This document shows positions 4,136-61,153 of a DNA stretch of 64,000 nucleotides, piece by piece (position 1 is the first letter of the stretch; every line of letters begins with the position of its first letter). A program made the position numbers and the translations under genes. The notes beneath the pieces were generated by a model. The model had not been told where the DNA came from. It did no database searches and saw nothing but the letters and a program-made list of their open reading frames with translations. Location: IMG/VR virus record IMGVR_UViG_3300025371_000001; one strand, given 5' to 3'. The DNA comes from an uncultured virus (IMG/VR IMGVR_UViG_3300025371_000001). Taxonomy: Adnaviria > Zilligvirae > Taleaviricota > Tokiviricetes > Ligamenvirales > Lipothrixviridae.

Positions 4136-4374
4136 CCCACACTTTTGCAGTACTTCAACAATTGATGACGTGTTAAGCCTAATAAACTCACTACCCACAC
4201 TTTTGCAGTACTTCAACACGGATGTTTTATATGATAAAATGACCCACACTTTTGCAGTACTTCAACAAGGGCGGTGATATTGTCGTGATGTTTGAACCTT
4301 ACCCGCACTTTTGCAGCACTTCAACAACTTCAATGTACCTTAACAAATGACCCACACTTTTGCAGTACTTCAAC
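4136..4374 (-). CRISPR. CRISPR-like array, five 24-nt repeats and four spacers (34, 25, 35, 25 nt)
   Basis: CCC(A/G)CACTTTTGCAG(T/C)ACTTCAAC at 4136-4159, 4194-4217, 4243-4266, 4302-4325, 4351-4374 with unique spacers; degenerate copy ~4083-4100. Confidence 0.85.
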
Positions 4375-4507
4375 CGTCCGCACGCAGTCGTTATCGTCGG
4401 CATCGTCTCTTATTCACGTGGGGGTGCGTGCCCCACAAGTCGCGGGTCTACCCTTGCGGGAACCCCGCCTAAGTACATAAATAATGTAGTAGGTAAAAAA
4501 GTTTTCT
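4375..4507 (-). ncRNA. Structured scaffold plus promoter leading into the array (cassette copy 1)
   Basis: Near-identical to the other dispersed copies; two GC-rich hairpins; GAAAACTTTTTTA BRE/TATA-like motif on the minus strand. Confidence 0.75.
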
Positions 4508-4546
4508 ATAGTTAATGGGACGACAAACCTCGCTCTTTAGGATGGG

Positions 4547-6127
4547 TTAGTTTACATTTAACAAATGTAGTTTTGCTTTTATGGTTTCAGTTTTCTTCAG
4601 TTGTTTCGGCATTTTAGAGAACGCTTTGTAAAATATGTTAAGTGCACCGTTCACGTCGGCGTTTATCATCTTACCTGTTTTCTCACATTTATATAAGCCT
4701 CTTTCAATTCTACCGTTTTTATGCACCTCCCCGCAAATGGAACATGTAATCGACGTATTATATTCCATAATTTCATCAACTTTTATTCCGTATCTTTCCC
4801 CAATTATTTTCAAATCATTAATCGTCTTTCTATACTGGAACAAGTTCACCGTCAATTCGTTTCTGTTTTTATTAATATTATATGGATAACCGACCACAAC
4901 ATATGTTACTCCCCTCTCCTTCAGAATACACAATAGTGTATTGATATATGTTCTCCTTATATGTCTCAGGGTTCTATCTCTTTTCTCATATAACTTTTTC
5001 CTCTCGTATTCTAACTTGTGAAGGATCGGTAAGTCCTTATAAATATCCCTCACAAGTGGTGATTTCTTGGGGAAAAGTTTGACAGTTCCGTTTAATTTCA
5101 TAAAATTTAGTTTGGCGATTCTTAGCTTGTAGTTGACCTTATGTATTTTCTTGACTATACTTGTCATGTCTTCTCTTCTTAATCGCTTCTTTTTTGCCCT
5201 CCCTACATCATACCGTGACGTGTATAGGGAGGTTATTATCTTGGACACCTGTCTATTATTCGTGAACCCCAAGAAGGGGTAACGCTTGAAACTTTTAGGC
5301 GGTGTGATGTACATCTGTAAGGTGTGTTTCCTGATTTTCCCTATTATACGATCCAGTTCTTTGATCTTTTCTTTATACATATTGTAAACATATGTGTACT
5401 CTTTCGCTTTAACGAGAATTACATCGCCGTCCTCTGTGACTGCCGCAAAAAAGTTGATGAGGCCTATGTCAATTGCTGCTTTCTTCCCTTTTTCGAGATT
5501 AGGGGTAAAATCGAAGGGAATGTAAGCGTAAAACTTGCCATCCAATTGTTTGATCGTCACCGCCCCTGGCTCACCATGATATAATAGTCTGTCTGCCTGG
5601 AACCTTAAAGATAGACGTTTACCTTTAAGTTTTATTGTTAATATCTTTTTGTCGAAATCAATCTCAACGCCACGGTCTCTAATTTGGAATAACTCAGGTA
5701 AAGTAGGAAATGATGGACGGCCTTCTATTTTATGTTTGAAAAAATTTTCATAGTTAGCGAAAAAGTTTTCGTATTGACCACGCAGGAATTGAAATAATTG
5801 ATCCGTAACGTTAGACCCTAGAGTATCTGTAATCCATTTCCTTTGTGTCTTGAAATATTCATTGAACCACAAATTGAATTTTTTCTTAACGTCTTTCAAT
5901 TGTTTTATGTTTTCTACTACTCCGTTAGTTGTAAGTTCCACAAATTTGGCGTAAGCGTCATTATTTAATTTCCTAGCTATTGTTGTGTATGCTTTAATTA
6001 AAGAAGTGAGATATATTTGCTGTTCCGTACTTAGGTTTAATCTAACAGTAAGTGAACGTTTATTATCACTTTCTTTCTGCCCTAAACGTTTACCGTTCTT
6101 TTTATCAGATGTCGTTTTACTTGACAT
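4547..6127 (-). CDS. tnpB: Enlarged TnpB/Cas12f-like RNA-guided RuvC nuclease (526 aa)
   Basis: RuvC-I AAIDIG; rearranged RuvC-II (VVVGYP ... MEYNTS); Zn ribbon CSICG/CEKTG; RuvC-III NADVNGALNI; ~100-aa basic insert relative to the TnpB at 55022. Confidence 0.85.
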   Translation of the reverse strand: MSSKTTSDKKNGKRLGQKESDNKRSLTVRLNLSTEQQIYLTSLIKAYTTIARKLNNDAYAKFVELTTNGVVENIKQLKDVKKKFNLWFNEYFKTQRKWITDTLGSNVTDQLFQFLRGQYENFFANYENFFKHKIEGRPSFPTLPELFQIRDRGVEIDFDKKILTIKLKGKRLSLRFQADRLLYHGEPGAVTIKQLDGKFYAYIPFDFTPNLEKGKKAAIDIGLINFFAAVTEDGDVILVKAKEYTYVYNMYKEKIKELDRIIGKIRKHTLQMYITPPKSFKRYPFLGFTNNRQVSKIITSLYTSRYDVGRAKKKRLRREDMTSIVKKIHKVNYKLRIAKLNFMKLNGTVKLFPKKSPLVRDIYKDLPILHKLEYERKKLYEKRDRTLRHIRRTYINTLLCILKERGVTYVVVGYPYNINKNRNELTVNLFQYRKTINDLKIIGERYGIKVDEIMEYNTSITCSICGEVHKNGRIERGLYKCEKTGKMINADVNGALNIFYKAFSKMPKQLKKTETIKAKLHLLNVN

Positions 6128-6299
6128 CTCTTCTCACCTTTTCAGCTCCTTCTTTCCTCTGTTTATTTATATAACCCCTGTTTATCGCCTCAATCATTAA
6201 CTCTCTTATCCCTTGAGCCATATCTATACCTTCCTCCTCACATAGTCTAGAAAAAACCTCCTTTACCTTTTCATCAATGTTTATTGTTATCTTCTTCAT
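6117..6299 (-). CDS. Ribbon-helix-helix (CopG-like) regulator, coupled to tnpB
   Basis: MKKITINIDEKVKEVFSRLCEEEGIDMAQGIRELM RHH pattern; overlaps the tnpB start. Confidence 0.75.
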   Translation of the reverse strand: MKKITINIDEKVKEVFSRLCEEEGIDMAQGIRELMIEAINRGYINKQRKEGAEKVRRDVK

Positions 6300-59671: not shown

Positions 59672-59755
59672 AATGGGGGTTAAGGGGGTGGAAAACCCCG
59701 CCTTGAAGGGCGGGGTAGCTCATAAATTTAAATCTTTCTGAATATCTTCAAATGT

Positions 59756-60919
59756 ATGGAATTAAGAGATTATCAGAAAGAAGCTTTAGACGCTATTCTT
59801 GAACGTAAACGTGGGTTAGTAGTTCTGCCCACTGGAGCGGGAAAAACATTAATAGGTATAGCTTTACTCAAATATTTACAAAAACATTACGATGAAGTGG
59901 AATATTATGTACTTGTACCAACACTAGCGTTAGTTAGGCAATGGTATACAGCTATAGTAAAGAACGGCGTGTCGCTTACATTGGGTAATGTAATGACTTA
60001 CGCTTCCTTCATATCTATATCGAATAGGTCTTCTTCAGTCTTTGGTAAAACTACAATAGAGCATGCGATCTCTGGGAAGAATATTAGGCGTGTAACTGTG
60101 ATAATAATCGATGAAGCACACCATGCACATCTAGCTACAAAGCTTTGGGAAGCCGTAGTAAAGGCAAACCCAAACTATTTAGTAGGGTTCACGGCTACGC
60201 CCAATCCATTTAAACAATACGCGATACCAGTTATTTTCAAACGTAGTCTAACAGAGTTAGCCAAATACATTGCAAATCTAGAAATAAACGAAGTACCAGT
60301 CACTTTAATTGGTGAAAATAGGGAAAGTTTCTTATTTAACACGAAGGAGTTAGGTAAACTGTTCGAACAGAGAGAAATCGCAGTAAAAAGAGGTGATATA
60401 GAGAAAATAGAGGCAATAGATTTAAAAATACAAGATATTTTAGCAGTTTTACCTACCATTATTGCTTTGGATGACAATATAATTAAAACTACAGTAGATA
60501 TTGCAGTCGAGTTATATAGGGAATCAAAAGATAGAATATTAATAAAAACACAGAGACATGCAGCAGCATGGAGCATAGCTAACTACATCATAAGTGAGTT
60601 AGGTATACCATCAGACCAAGTACTAGTATATAAAGGGAAACAAGATGTAAGTAAGTTGTATGAACAAAAATGGAGGATATTGATAGCAATAAAGGCATTA
60701 AGCGAAGGAATAGATGTACCAGATCTAACATACGCCATATTGTCTAGTTATGATTATGGGAACATAATAAGTATGGTTCAAACTATAGGGAGAACTCTCA
60801 GAAAAACACCTACAAAGAATAAAGCAGTAGTATATATACTTGTACCTAATTTACCACAGTATAAGAAGGCATACCAGAGGTTGTTGAAATACATAAAAAC
60901 TGCAGAGATAACAAAATGA
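59756..60919 (+). CDS. Superfamily 2 helicase
   Basis: LRDYQ; PTGAGKT; DEAH; TAT; EGIDVP; QTIGR. Confidence 0.92.
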   Translation: MELRDYQKEALDAILERKRGLVVLPTGAGKTLIGIALLKYLQKHYDEVEYYVLVPTLALVRQWYTAIVKNGVSLTLGNVMTYASFISISNRSSSVFGKTTIEHAISGKNIRRVTVIIIDEAHHAHLATKLWEAVVKANPNYLVGFTATPNPFKQYAIPVIFKRSLTELAKYIANLEINEVPVTLIGENRESFLFNTKELGKLFEQREIAVKRGDIEKIEAIDLKIQDILAVLPTIIALDDNIIKTTVDIAVELYRESKDRILIKTQRHAAAWSIANYIISELGIPSDQVLVYKGKQDVSKLYEQKWRILIAIKALSEGIDVPDLTYAILSSYDYGNIISMVQTIGRTLRKTPTKNKAVVYILVPNLPQYKKAYQRLLKYIKTAEITK

Positions 60920-60937
60920 CTTCCTCGCCATCCTTCA

Positions 60938-61153
60938 CCCGCACTTTTGCAGAACTTCAACTTGTTTAGCTCATTCCACGAATATTTACTTTTAATCCCG
61001 CACTTTTGCAGAACTTCAACCATCCGCACGCAGTCGCTATCTTCCGCATCGTCGCTTATTCACGTGGGGGTGCGTGCCCCACAGAACGCGGGTCTACCCC
61101 TTTCGGGGAACCCCGCTTAACTAGCAGTTAGTACAGTAGAATTTAAAGTTTTC
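60938..61153 (-). CRISPR. Cassette copy 9: promoter, scaffold, repeat, 35-nt spacer, repeat
   Basis: Identical repeats 60938-60961 and 60997-61020; promoter 61141-61153. Confidence 0.85.

Follow-up and report, generated by a model that had tools for sequence, protein, structure and literature searches.

The nine cassettes dispersed over a 64,000-nucleotide stretch of DNA (the window; source contig, 102,872 bp) are best read as natural single-guide RNA genes of a TnpB-derived, type V-U/TranC-like system that is carried by a mobile element, relies on one effector, and takes part in conflict between related elements. We put the probability of this reading at about 0.65. The main observations that bear on it are (i) the anatomy of the cassettes, (ii) their linkage to an effector gene, (iii) protospacer matches, (iv) a shared flanking motif, and (v) polymorphism of insertions and arrays. 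According to the initial annotation, dispersed guide RNAs would act through one effector, whether to compete with other viruses, to target host genes, or for regulation; the effector linkage and targets flanked by YCN support the first of these roles, and none of the analyses run provides evidence of host-gene targeting or regulation by the cassettes.

Cassette Anatomy

The nine cassettes reported on both strands are all present (9/9) and align over ~160 nt, and their similarity stops exactly after GTGCGGG, where the initial annotation had placed a sharp end of conservation. In the scaffold, a pair of GC-rich hairpins is combined with GAUGCNGAC-like units, whose number varies, and with a 3′ module specific to each class; the scaffold as a whole is joined in cis upstream of the first repeat. 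The repeat is 24 nt long and ends in AGTGCGGG; its final 8 nt (AGUGCGGG), which adjoin the guide, do not vary. The repeat consensus GTTGAAGTACTGCAAAAGTGYGGG has 15 matches in the window at ≤3 mismatches, compared with 0.00 in shuffled sequence, and a 16th repeat of another class lies in cassette 3 (13530–13553). An extended anti-repeat or separate tracrRNA is not seen, and only CCCGC(G) is complementary to the repeat end GCGGG.

Additional repeat-spacer units, claimed for four copies, occur in cassettes 1, 3, 5, and 9. Cassette 1 (4351–4507, minus strand) comprises a promoter (GAAAACTTTTTTAC), the scaffold, and the first repeat, and lies 40 nt downstream of the stop codon of the candidate effector, P0001. 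Its array (4136–4374, minus strand) has five repeats and four spacers of 25, 35, 25, and 34 nt, followed by a degenerate sixth repeat-like unit at ~4083–4106. Cassette 3 (13396–13598, plus strand) has a scaffold that terminates in the different repeat class (..GATCGGAAAAAGTGCGGG, ending at 13553); a spacer of 21 nt and another repeat (13575–13598) come next. Cassettes 5 (30763–30978, plus strand) and 9 (60938–61153, minus strand) each hold two repeats and one 35-nt spacer. The downstream units of arrays have no scaffold in cis.

The remaining cassettes have one repeat each. Cassette 2 (6365–6523, plus strand) is divergent from the effector gene, and its guide of ~34 nt (6524–6557) recurs behind the same cassette in another genomic context in contig L096. 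Cassette 4 (22634–22790, minus strand) is missing in L024 and L040, whose likeness to the window starts exactly after GTGCGGG. Cassette 6 (35501–35652, plus strand) has a 6-nt deletion in its second hairpin, cassette 7 (56655–56813, minus strand) is convergent with a second TnpB-like gene, and cassette 8 occupies 57766–57923 (plus strand). A cassette with one repeat has its own flanking sequence as guide, which resembles a transposon-type homing guide more than a stored library entry.

Three truncated or degenerate copies, together with the TnpB-like gene beside cassette 1, were absent from the initial annotation. The copy at 28150–28222 (minus strand; nhmmer E 2.7e-14) lacks both 5′ hairpins, starting at CACGTGAATAAG and ending in ..GATCGGAAAAAAGTGCGGG. 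A 5′-truncated, degenerate copy found by nhmmer lies at 25702–25763 (minus strand), and a degenerate remnant at 53677–53730 (plus strand) directly precedes the promoter of the ORF at 53769.

Promoter, Transcription, and RNA Structure

The cassette promoter is, from its sequence, of the archaeal BRE/TATA type. Of the nine cassettes, for which a GAAAA(C/G)TTTAAA-type promoter had been proposed, seven carry GAAAASTTTAAA exactly, and cassettes 1 and 7 have GAAAACTTTTTTAC in its place; in cassette 2, 27 nt separate the TATA end from the conserved GCGGGG. The motif has 14 copies in the window, versus 0.10 expected. The other seven copies are upstream of ORFs, four of them 24–29 nt ahead of the start codon.

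Metatranscriptome contigs (X19, X20) reach depths of 131–549 over four cassette bins and 0–9 over the effector gene body and flanking bins; these contigs were pooled at ≥90% likeness and the element is multi-copy and common to many strains, so copy number or DNA carry-over could inflate the RNA depth. An adapter-joined end at 4458 appears in both runs.

Compensatory changes were sought in the nine window copies, which contain 0 compensatory pairs, and the fold z-score of the cassette RNA is only −1.56. Structural support comes from the wider cassette family only, where the C-run and G-run lengths of hairpin 1 co-vary (3/3, n=31; 4/4, n~59; 5/5, n=2) and are unequal in ~5 of 101. The Sulfolobus conjugative plasmid pKEF9 has a hairpin of other sequence at the matching position.

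The Candidate Effector

P0001 (4547–6127, minus strand) is a TnpB/Cas12f-like protein of 526 aa that matches Pfam OrfB_IS605 (PF01385) and Cas12f1-like_TNB (PF07282), both above the cut-offs. Its AlphaFold model (pLDDT 72.8) has AsCas12f (E 9e-14), ISFba1 TnpB, CnCas12f1, and LaTranC (9jfq) as top Foldseek matches, and the Foldseek probability is 1.00 for AsCas12f, TnpB, Fanzor2, and LaTranC. On the basis of the Pfam and Foldseek matches, P0001 is assigned to the TnpB/Cas12 superfamily, with a predicted RuvC-like fold and a TNB/zinc-ribbon insertion. Sequence similarity to Cas12f is limited to the C-terminal RuvC/TNB part, and full-length relatives are few.

The putative catalytic residues in the alignment are D220 (RuvC-I) and D491 (RuvC-III, NADVN). 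The RuvC-II glutamate is replaced by glycine (VVGYP), and an alternative glutamate, E455 (EYNTS), is conserved in the clade. This D220/E455/D491 pattern aligns with the rearranged, Glu-to-Gly NADXN type, which the available text of PMC10691335 predicts to be active.

The same rearranged RuvC site is found in the second TnpB-like gene (55022–56392), whose product could use the cassettes instead of P0001 or as well. Further TnpB elements in the window include an IS607 element with a serine recombinase. TnpA does not adjoin P0001 or the cassettes, either in the window (70 ORFs) or in cassette neighborhoods elsewhere (99 of 139 representative ORFs).

Related Loci and Their Carrier

At least 136 related cassette loci occur in hot-spring metagenomes. 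Of 125 distinct arrays, 50 have 2–13 repeats, and 81 of 122 spacers in these arrays are 38–41 nt long. The array of L079 differs from that of L014 by one additional spacer at the scaffold-proximal end. The claim of an effector gains weight from the neighborhood of the cassettes: a TnpB/Cas12f-like ORF adjoins cassette 1 in the window, and no ORF family near cassettes has more members than the P0001 family (13; 251 ORFs, 139 families). A gene 75–100% identical to P0001 adjoins a cassette and array in L015/16, L033/34, L039, L058/59, L080, L081, L101, and L019/20, and a P0001-type gene and a cassette are also linked in the IMG/VR contig L137. Cas1, Cas2, Cas4, and Cas6 were not found near cassettes (among ORFs ≤2.5 kb away, with 99 of 139 representatives covered), nor cas1, cas2, or cas4 among the 70 ORFs of the window.

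Host-type arrays in L022, L038, and L091 (repeats ending in GAATTGAAAG) hold spacers equal to the scaffold, which marks the carrier as a mobile element. Genes neighboring cassettes include ATV_ORF273, MoxR, and VWA, and the window is best taken as part of a large Sulfolobales mobile element, probably a bicaudavirus-like virus. Cassettes are polymorphic for presence and absence (L130 vs L029; L088 vs L009), two insertions are accompanied by duplications of 13 and 10 nt, and left ends are variable. Cassettes are also located at rearrangement breakpoints, as would be expected of recombination between dispersed repeats.

Spacer Targets and the YCN Motif

Outside arrays, related contigs contain matches to 11 internal spacers, and the base at position −2 is C in nine of the 11. 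Similarly, 38 terminal flanks have cassette-free homologous sites with C at −2 in 27; CCN precedes 17 and TCN seven of these sites (YCN, 24/38), against a CCN background of ~4.6%. YCN thus stands 5′ of both spacer matches and cassette-free flank alleles. It equals the CCN that adjoins the three host-spacer targets and may for this reason reflect host adaptation rather than the effector. The initial annotation had suggested looking for protospacers with a shared flanking motif: related contigs and the pKEF9 spacers supply both, with YCN on the 5′ side, and the window's own seven internal spacers have 0 targets among the metagenome cassette loci, the phage collection (searched for cassettes 1, 2, and 5–9), and IMG/VR (one spacer). 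The suggested role in inter-virus competition accords with array spacers that match related mobile-element contigs and with pKEF9 spacers that match cultured viruses.

The terminal flank of cassette 5 has 25 of 26 nt in common with promoter-like sequences at 36769 and 37052, a match that leaves out the first seven guide positions. No seed-complete promoter match was found.

The pKEF9 Locus

pKEF9 carries a homologous nuclease gene, a scaffold, and six repeats. The nuclease homolog, beside the scaffold, is 43.5% identical to P0001 and is broken by an in-frame stop. The pKEF9 and window scaffolds share the hairpin GTGTGGGGCACGCACCCCCACGTG and the GGTATAAAAACTTTC element, and the pKEF9 repeat is likewise 24 nt and ends in GTGCGGG; its spacers are 39–43 nt. 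Spacer 2 matches SIRV2 (37/41, flank TCA), spacer 4 matches SSV4 (34/39, flank CCT), and spacer 5 matches YNP1 (33/39, flank CCG). Unlike the window, pKEF9 carries just one such locus, and cassettes are not dispersed over it. The available text of PMC4872121 describes the locus as transcribed and processed to small RNAs, and, with that of PMC4390879, as dependent on host Cas6 and host complexes; published work also describes it as leaderless. pNOB8 is reported to have a small CRISPR locus like that of pKEF9. Our literature search found no publication naming both pKEF9 and TnpB.

Comparison with Known Systems

The system resembles TranC/type V-U systems, which share (i) a TnpB-sized effector with, as predicted here, a TnpB/Cas12f fold (structural matches include LaTranC 9jfq), (ii) arrays of direct repeats and unique, regular-length spacers next to the effector gene, (iii) the absence of cas1, cas2, and cas4, and (iv) a short PAM-like motif. 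Unlike in TranC, every array here has a scaffold joined in cis to its first repeat and preceded by a promoter of its own, single-guide units are spread across the genome, the repeats measure 24 nt versus 32–38 nt in TranC clades (bioRxiv 10.64898/2026.03.27.714800, partial text), and an archaeal virus or plasmid acts as carrier. The system may fall in a TranC clade of Jin et al. 2025 (Cell), here compared by way of later descriptions.

With the ωRNA of IS200/IS605 TnpB, the cassettes share a long structured RNA ending right at the guide start, a guide equal to the flank, and a motif that precedes the flank in the empty site and is missing from the occupied one. Unlike IS200/IS605 elements, they have no TnpA, an RNA gene apart from the ORF with its own promoter, multi-spacer arrays, and many orphan copies.

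Cas12f (type V-F) provides the best structural match to the P0001 model and likewise pairs an effector of small size with a scaffold that is long and tracrRNA/sgRNA-like; Cas12f1 prefers T- or C-rich PAMs, according to excerpts of PMC12216341. Unlike in Cas12f, the RuvC-II site is rearranged, and a tracrRNA gene of its own, with a clear anti-repeat, is lacking. Finally, the mini-CRISPR arrays of Sulfolobales viruses are also short and carry spacers against close relatives (PMC6858448, PMC11656645; partial texts). Those arrays have repeats identical to the host's and depend on host Cas, as far as the available part of PMC11656645 describes them, unlike the present cassettes with their own repeat, scaffold, and linked nuclease.

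Proposed Mechanism and Alternative Explanations

In the single-guide system proposed here, many guide RNAs would be transcribed separately, each starting ~25 nt after its own BRE/TATA promoter, and P0001 would bind them. Arrays may have grown as the terminal 24-nt segment was duplicated repeatedly and new spacers were added; type V-U/TranC arrays are thought to come from serial duplication of ωRNA segments (PMC10691335, PMC13565253, in the sections available). The ribonucleoprotein would recognize guide-matching DNA preceded by 5′-YCN and then cut it, the internal spacers being aimed at related mobile elements and the downstream units presumably used as well, to the likely benefit of the element. 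Because every cassette's terminal guide would be its own flank, it matches, and would cut, the cassette-free allele in a co-infecting relative, with the possible outcome that the rival is excluded or that the cassette is copied into it (homing). The occupied locus would be protected because GGG stands in place of YCN.

A tentative and rather doubtful extension holds that orphan cassettes are self-propagating, RNA-guided homing units whose transcript is used in two modes. Loaded with the RNA of a cassette, the effector would cleave the allele that lacks this cassette (YCN plus flank) in a co-infecting relative, and repair from the cassette-bearing genome would copy promoter, scaffold, and repeat into the site, sometimes duplicating 10–13 nt beside the motif. 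The first spacer would use the primary transcript as an unsplit, ωRNA-like single guide, and downstream repeat-spacer units would take their scaffold in trans from orphan cassettes.

Non-autonomous, MITE-like ends of IS200/IS605-type elements, with an ωRNA whose flank guides serve transposon retention only and arrays as by-products, are an unlikely alternative source of the cassettes. Similarity that stops exactly at the repeat end, a TAM-like YCN directly before the flank in cassette-free alleles, the presence/absence polymorphism, the TnpB-related effector, and the other TnpB elements of the window, IS607 included, would all fit such ends. They do not account for the missing TnpA, the unfixed left ends, the arrays of up to 13 units with unique spacers matching other loci beside the same motif, or a promoter on every cassette with no overlap with the tnpB 3′ end, and the available portion of PMC13565253 indicates that IS605 and IS607 do not make 13- and 10-nt duplications. 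It is quite unlikely that the loci are CRISPR arrays acting as decoys or parasites and served by host type I/III Cas proteins, with Cas6 processing, and that the TnpB-like gene is an unrelated IS remnant. Spacers of 38–41 nt and repeats of 24 nt resemble those of typical Sulfolobales arrays, and the host-like dimensions, the CCN at the three host-spacer targets, the Cas1-Cas2-like gain of a scaffold-proximal spacer in L079, and the absence of adaptation genes nearby agree with use of host Cas, as does the published interpretation of pKEF9 (PMC4872121, PMC4390879; partial texts). However, the invariant last 8 nt of the cassette repeat, AGTGCGGG, differ from the ends of same-sample host repeats (ATTGAAAG), whereas viral mini-arrays have repeats identical to the host's (PMC11656645, as far as available). 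A conserved, transcribed scaffold of 110–190 nt has no role in Cas6-type systems, and the linkage of scaffold and TnpB-like gene extends from the window family to pKEF9, at 43.5% protein identity.

It is very improbable that the system is a TldR-like repressor, guided by RNA but dead as a nuclease, or that it acts at the DNA level alone, as a site for binding or recombination without any function for RNA. The resemblance of the cassette 5 flank to promoter-like sequences and the position of cassettes at breakpoints point that way, but the former lacks the first seven guide positions and the latter is what dispersed-repeat recombination would give. Moreover, the catalytic triad appears conserved in full, in its rearranged form, and the cassettes have promoters and are covered in RNA libraries.

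Implications

In this design, arrays fused to a scaffold coexist with numerous single-guide genes that are scattered, have their own promoters, and would serve one effector. We found no description of such a design in the literature; it is a natural intermediate between the guide RNA of a transposon and CRISPR, and appears to be aimed at rival relatives. On the practical side, it offers a compact (~526 aa) candidate nuclease of thermophile origin whose motif is short and C-rich and which comes with a natural single-guide RNA. If the single-guide reading is true, the long-known CRISPR locus of pKEF9 would be reassigned from host Cas to a linked TnpB-derived nuclease, and an archaeal virus- and plasmid-borne lineage would join the independent origins of type V systems. 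The system is a concrete one in which to test the transition from ωRNA to CRISPR array, and a test case for whether related viruses use RNA-guided nucleases as weapons against one another, by homing or by exclusion. Should homing and two-mode use of the transcript prove true, the cassettes would represent a living intermediate in the split of ωRNA into tracrRNA and crRNA, and homing itself would amount to a natural gene drive among archaeal viruses.

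Putative Guide Cassettes in the Window

Alignment of all nine proposed guide cassettes confirms them at 4351-4507(−), 6365-6523(+), 13396-13598(+), 22634-22790(−), 30763-30978(+), 35501-35652(+), 56655-56813(−), 57766-57923(+), and 60938-61153(−) (cassettes 1-9). They are built of (i) a 5′ promoter element, GAAAA(C/G)TTTAAA in seven of the nine and GAAAACTTTTTTAC in cassettes 1 and 7, (ii) a weakly conserved stretch of ~27 nt between promoter and scaffold, (iii) a conserved block of ~110 nt starting with (A/G)GCGGGGTTCCCC, and (iv) a 24-nt repeat, GTTGAAGTACTGCAAAAGTGYGGG, with similarity among cassettes ending after GTGCGGG. 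The repeat has 15 matches in the window at ≤3 mismatches and none in shuffled sequence. As the initial annotation had described, four cassettes carry extra repeat-spacer units, cassette 1 having five repeats and cassettes 3, 5, and 9 two each. A profile search adds 5′-truncated or degenerate cassettes at 28150-28222(−), 25702-25763(−), and 53677-53730(+). Rfam has no match in the window at gathering thresholds, and there are no tRNAs either.

The promoter assignment is reasonable because the 12-mer is enriched (14 copies in the window versus 0.10 expected) and its seven copies outside cassettes all precede ORFs; in four cases the spacing to the start codon is 24-29 nt, the distance expected for leaderless archaeal genes.

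Other repeated sequences accompany the cassettes. At 13599-13653, immediately behind the final repeat of cassette 3, a 28-nt unit, CTTCTTCTGTTGGGTTAATTAATTTTGT, stands in tandem duplicate (27/27 nt match). The fifth repeat of cassette 1 is followed, at 4083-4135(−), by a 29-nt stretch with GAGGTTTTTCGCTCCCTTAAC, which has 7 copies in the window versus 0.45 expected, and then by a degenerate repeat-like end, GAAAAAGTGCGGG; this looks like a decayed sixth unit with a common intergenic motif as its “spacer”. A dispersed motif of ~35 nt (AACCTCGCCCTTTAGGGCGGGGAGGAGGTCAG) that contains a CGCCC/GGGCG hairpin occupies at least 16 window sites (for example 56407-56442, 56829-56864, 58700-58733, 19612-19647, 23859-23888, 33904-33928, 43196-43224, and 62082-62114) between gene ends and the following BRE/TATA promoter, and is often the upstream neighbor of a cassette. 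It is also present in SMV1, SMV3, ATV, HAV2, and YNP2, in ATV just downstream of an OrfB gene, and may act as a terminator or mark an RNA end related to OrfB.

Scaffold Structure and Transcription

All loci share a GC-rich 5′ module consisting of the hairpin GCGGGG-UU-CCCC-GAAA-GGGG-UAGA-CCCGC and a second hairpin, GUGGGG-CACGCA-CCCCAC, followed by GAUGCNGAC-like 9-mers whose copy number differs between loci, from 1 to ~8. These 9-nt units, also GAUGCGGAC-like, stand between GAATAAG and the 3′ module in the scaffolds of all loci and resemble a tandem repeat within the RNA.

Support for a structured scaffold RNA is moderate, because the nine window copies yield no compensatory pair, although the fold of three to four hairpins is plausible, yet the wider family changes stem length in pairs and the plasmid pKEF9 carries an alternative hairpin. 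The fold z-score is unremarkable (−1.56). Among 101 parsed members of the listed loci, the two sides of the hairpin 1 inner stem lengthen or shorten together, being 3/3 in 31, 4/4 in ~59, and 5/5 in 2, with ~5 unequal. The stem before class B/C repeats reads CUG:CAG versus CGG:CCG in ~5 of 9 class C sequences, a weak signal judged by eye. Anti-repeat pairing of 5′ leader variants with repeat classes was rejected, as leader type and repeat class are uncorrelated.

Contigs of four metatranscriptome runs were compared with window 4001-24000; such contigs carry neither strand nor true ends. In two runs (X19 and X20), bins with cassettes 1-4 reach summed depths of 131-549, compared to 0-9 for the effector gene body and 0-4.5 for the flanking bins 12005-13338 and 22010-22676, these depths being pooled over all relatives of at least 90% likeness and the scaffold being multi-copy. 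Contigs of both runs end at 4458, joined to Illumina adapter, within the first hairpin of cassette 1 and ~10 nt from its predicted 5′ end. The depth at the 3′ end of the tnpB gene in the window's IS607-type element (9337-10003) is 3877 and 8886 versus 300-640 in the gene body, an excess of 10-20 times of the kind expected for an omega-RNA; library depth therefore tracks RNA and not copy number alone. The predicted cassette RNA would start at (A/G)GCGGGG, with the TATA box ~25 nt upstream, and run 20-40 nt past AGUGCGGG.

Candidate Effector P0001 and Other TnpB-like Proteins

P0001, the candidate effector, is a 526-aa protein encoded at 4547-6127(−). Cassette 1 starts 40 nt past its stop codon on the same strand, while cassette 2 lies upstream in divergent orientation. 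Its domain matches are OrfB_IS605 and Cas12f1-like_TNB. Sequence likeness to solved Cas12f and TnpB chains covers only the last ~130 residues, and the AlphaFold model (pLDDT 72.8) matches AsCas12f, ISFba1 TnpB, ISDra2 TnpB, CnCas12f1, Fanzor2, and LaTranC over the whole length. In the alignment, RuvC-I D220 and RuvC-III D491 (motif NADVN) are retained and RuvC-II has a Gly where the canonical Glu stands (VVGYP). E455, just before the TS..C..CG motif, is conserved in the clade and missing from the window's canonical IS607 TnpB. A Glu-to-Gly rearrangement with a compensating Glu, predicted to be active, is described by Altae-Tran et al. (PMC10691335). Judged by its residues, the catalytic site of P0001 is of this rearranged type, with predicted activity.

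Full-length relatives are scarce, with one 74%-identical cluster at 50% clustering. The others are a Saccharolobus islandicus protein with 51% identity in its C-terminal part only and one N-terminal fragment; the remaining matches are restricted to ~residues 370-510.

The window encodes further TnpB-like proteins. The ORF at 55022-56392(+) (456 aa), convergent with cassette 7, has the same RuvC-II Gly-for-Glu rearrangement as P0001, and in two metagenome loci, L014 and L079, its 88% homologues lie downstream of the cassette arrays at a distance of ~1.3 kb. An ORF at 44488-45342(+) (284 aa) retains the TNB part alone. The IS607-type element at 7731-9667 has copies of 88% identity in the ATSV and SSV genomes; its ORFs encode a MerR-HTH/serine resolvase (7795-8379) and a canonical TnpB (8357-9655).

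Wider Family in Hot-Spring Metagenomes

A 19-nt scaffold motif identifies at least 136 hot-spring metagenome loci; a scan of genome contigs gave two bacterial chance matches (L001, L002), which are excluded from every count. Repeat and scaffold motif have no exact match in IMG/VR, where the related contig L137 has an altered motif. Repeat classes differ between loci, e.g., GCTGCAACTCTATAGAAGTGCGGG, GCTGAAACCCGATTCGAGTGCGGG, and ..GATCGGAAAAAAGTGCGGG, with the common end AGTGCGGG, an 8-mer for which a literature search gives unrelated matches only. Among the listed loci, 125 distinct arrays comprise 58 with one repeat, 50 with 2-13 repeats, and 17 without a recognizable repeat end, the last including chance matches (L011, L030), host arrays (L022, L038, L091), and truncated copies. 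Of 122 spacers in the listed arrays, 81 measure 38-41 nt. Two loci, L079 and L014, have three spacers in common, with one more beside the scaffold in L079, and gains and losses separate L015 from L019; these differences show that the arrays are dynamic.

The initial annotation's overall reading, dispersed guide RNA genes acting with one effector, is largely borne out. In the listed loci, 251 ORFs (139 families) lie no more than 2.5 kb from cassettes, and the P0001-like family is the largest (13 members). In at least eight independent contigs, a P0001-like gene (75-100% identity) is the immediate neighbor of a cassette and array; the same holds for L137, whose divergent upstream cassette has at least five repeats. 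Effector proteins that are 87% identical occur with different repeat classes, which suggests that the effector reads only the scaffold and the repeat's invariant 3′ end. A search covering 70 window ORFs and 99 of the 139 representative neighbor ORFs found no Cas1, Cas2, Cas4, or Cas6.

Targets and Flanking Motif

Eleven internal spacers of listed metagenome arrays match outside arrays, all in related contigs, with C at −2 in 9 of 11 sites and CCA as the most frequent triplet. The window's seven internal spacers have no target in the collections searched: blastn-short against all loci returns homologous copies only; the phage collection, compared with 4100-6600, 30700-35750, and 56600-61200, returns intergenic motif or noise only; and one 26-nt spacer stretch has no match in IMG/VR. 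Window 28421-28452, which matches L054 spacer 5 at 31/32 positions (of 40 nt), was rejected as a target, since YCN is missing and the 5′ end does not match.

The same kind of signal is stronger for the terminal flanks, i.e., the sequence directly after the last repeat. For 38 distinct cassettes of the listed loci, relatives exist that have the flank and no cassette, with similarity beginning at base 1 after GTGCGGG. Just upstream, C stands at −2 in 27 of 38, CCN in 17, and TCN in 7, while CCN makes up ~4.6% of triplets overall. Cassette 4 has empty alleles in L024 and L040, where the flank is TCAT. The terminal “guide” thus corresponds to a site flanked by YCN in the genomes of rivals, and the occupied site has GGG where the empty one has the YCN motif. 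By analogy, a guide equal to the flank, with YCN in the empty and GGG in the occupied site, follows the logic of TnpB/omega-RNA homing. In L096, the cassette 2 scaffold and the same ~34 nt are located at the cassette 4 locus, so that a guide-like unit has moved together with its cassette.

How Cassettes May Spread

Locus pairs with and without cassettes show several kinds of junction. L130 differs from L029 by a clean insertion of ~282 nt (upstream intergenic sequence, promoter, scaffold, and repeat) with a 13-nt duplication whose first base directly follows CCT, and L075 versus the window shows a duplication of 10 nt behind CCA. Target duplication as a general rule was rejected: duplications of ≥9 nt occur in only 2 of 56 cassettes versus 4 of 224 controls, one of the two (L047) being promoter-like and L130 being too short for the 56-cassette set. 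The 10- and 13-nt duplications might instead reflect selection keeping overlapping ORFs intact. In L088 and L035 versus L009, sequence is replaced or inverted and one of the breakpoints coincides with the repeat end, and RNA-library contigs join the repeat ends 6523 and 22632 to 21424/21426. Recombination between dispersed copies would explain many of these rearrangements.

A Cultured Relative: pKEF9

The Sulfolobus islandicus plasmid pKEF9 encodes a P0001 homologue (43.5% identity over 91% of the length; L138 2890-4695) that one in-frame stop divides into an N-terminal ORF of 245 aa and a C-terminal ORF of 355 aa; the annotations read “hypothetical protein” and “zinc ribbon domain-containing protein”. 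The homologue retains AIDIGL, VVGYP, EEYGTS, and NADLN. In divergent orientation, it is accompanied by a BRE/TATA-like element, a scaffold, and six repeats, GTTGCAATTCCCTAAATGTGCGGG, with spacers of 39-43 nt. The scaffold has the second hairpin and the GGTATAAAAACTTTC element in common with the cassettes and carries a hairpin of different sequence, UCUCCGC/GCGGAGA, at the first-hairpin position. Spacer 2 matches SIRV2 (37/41, 5′ flank TCA), spacer 4 SSV4 (34/39, CCT), and spacer 5 YNP1 (33/39, CCG).

The pKEF9 CRISPR locus is already known: PMC4872121 describes it as a locus with “an exceptional repeat structure” that is transcribed and processed to small RNAs, lacks a leader, has a degenerate first repeat, and is presumed to be served by host Cas6 and host complexes, and PMC4390879 takes the same view of the pNOB8 and pKEF9 loci. 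A literature search found no paper naming both “pKEF9” and “TnpB”.

Carrier Element and Relation to Known Systems

The window has a G+C content of 33-42%, and most of its ORFs are without known family, several matching PHROG families of unknown function. Recognizable genes include those for ParA/ParB, ThyX, dCTP deaminase, DNA methylases, glycosyltransferases, and a helicase. Nucleotide matches to Sulfolobales viruses (ATSV, SSV, YNP1/2, SMV1) are limited to the IS607-type element and a methylase. The contig under which P0001 is recorded measures 102,872 bp, and IMG/VR contains one related contig (L137). The neighborhood of related cassettes includes genes for ATV_ORF273, a MoxR ATPase, and a VWA protein, which are characteristic of two-tailed and large spindle viruses. 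The carrier is probably a large virus, with a plasmid as the alternative.

Host-type CRISPR arrays in L022, L038, and L091, with three different repeats all ending in GAATTGAAAG, each hold a spacer identical to the conserved scaffold (the same hairpin), and the matched site has CCC or CCG as its 5′ neighbor in each case. These spacers argue that the carrier is a mobile element targeted by the immunity of Sulfolobales hosts. A further L022 spacer matches 26/28 nt of spacer 1 in the L061 cassette array.

The system is in keeping with the class of effectors derived from TnpB that have arrays and no adaptation genes, designated type V-U in PMC10691335 and “TranC” in PMC13565253 and bioRxiv 10.64898/2026.03.27.714800. 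It differs from these in (i) a scaffold fused in cis before every array, (ii) a 24-nt repeat, (iii) an archaeal mobile-element setting, and (iv) a dozen scattered single-guide genes per genome. Nor are the cassettes of the same kind as the Sulfolobales virus mini-arrays with host repeats reported in PMC11656645 and PMC6858448. By analogy, the system would work like TnpB/omega-RNA or a small Cas12 nuclease, with putative activity.
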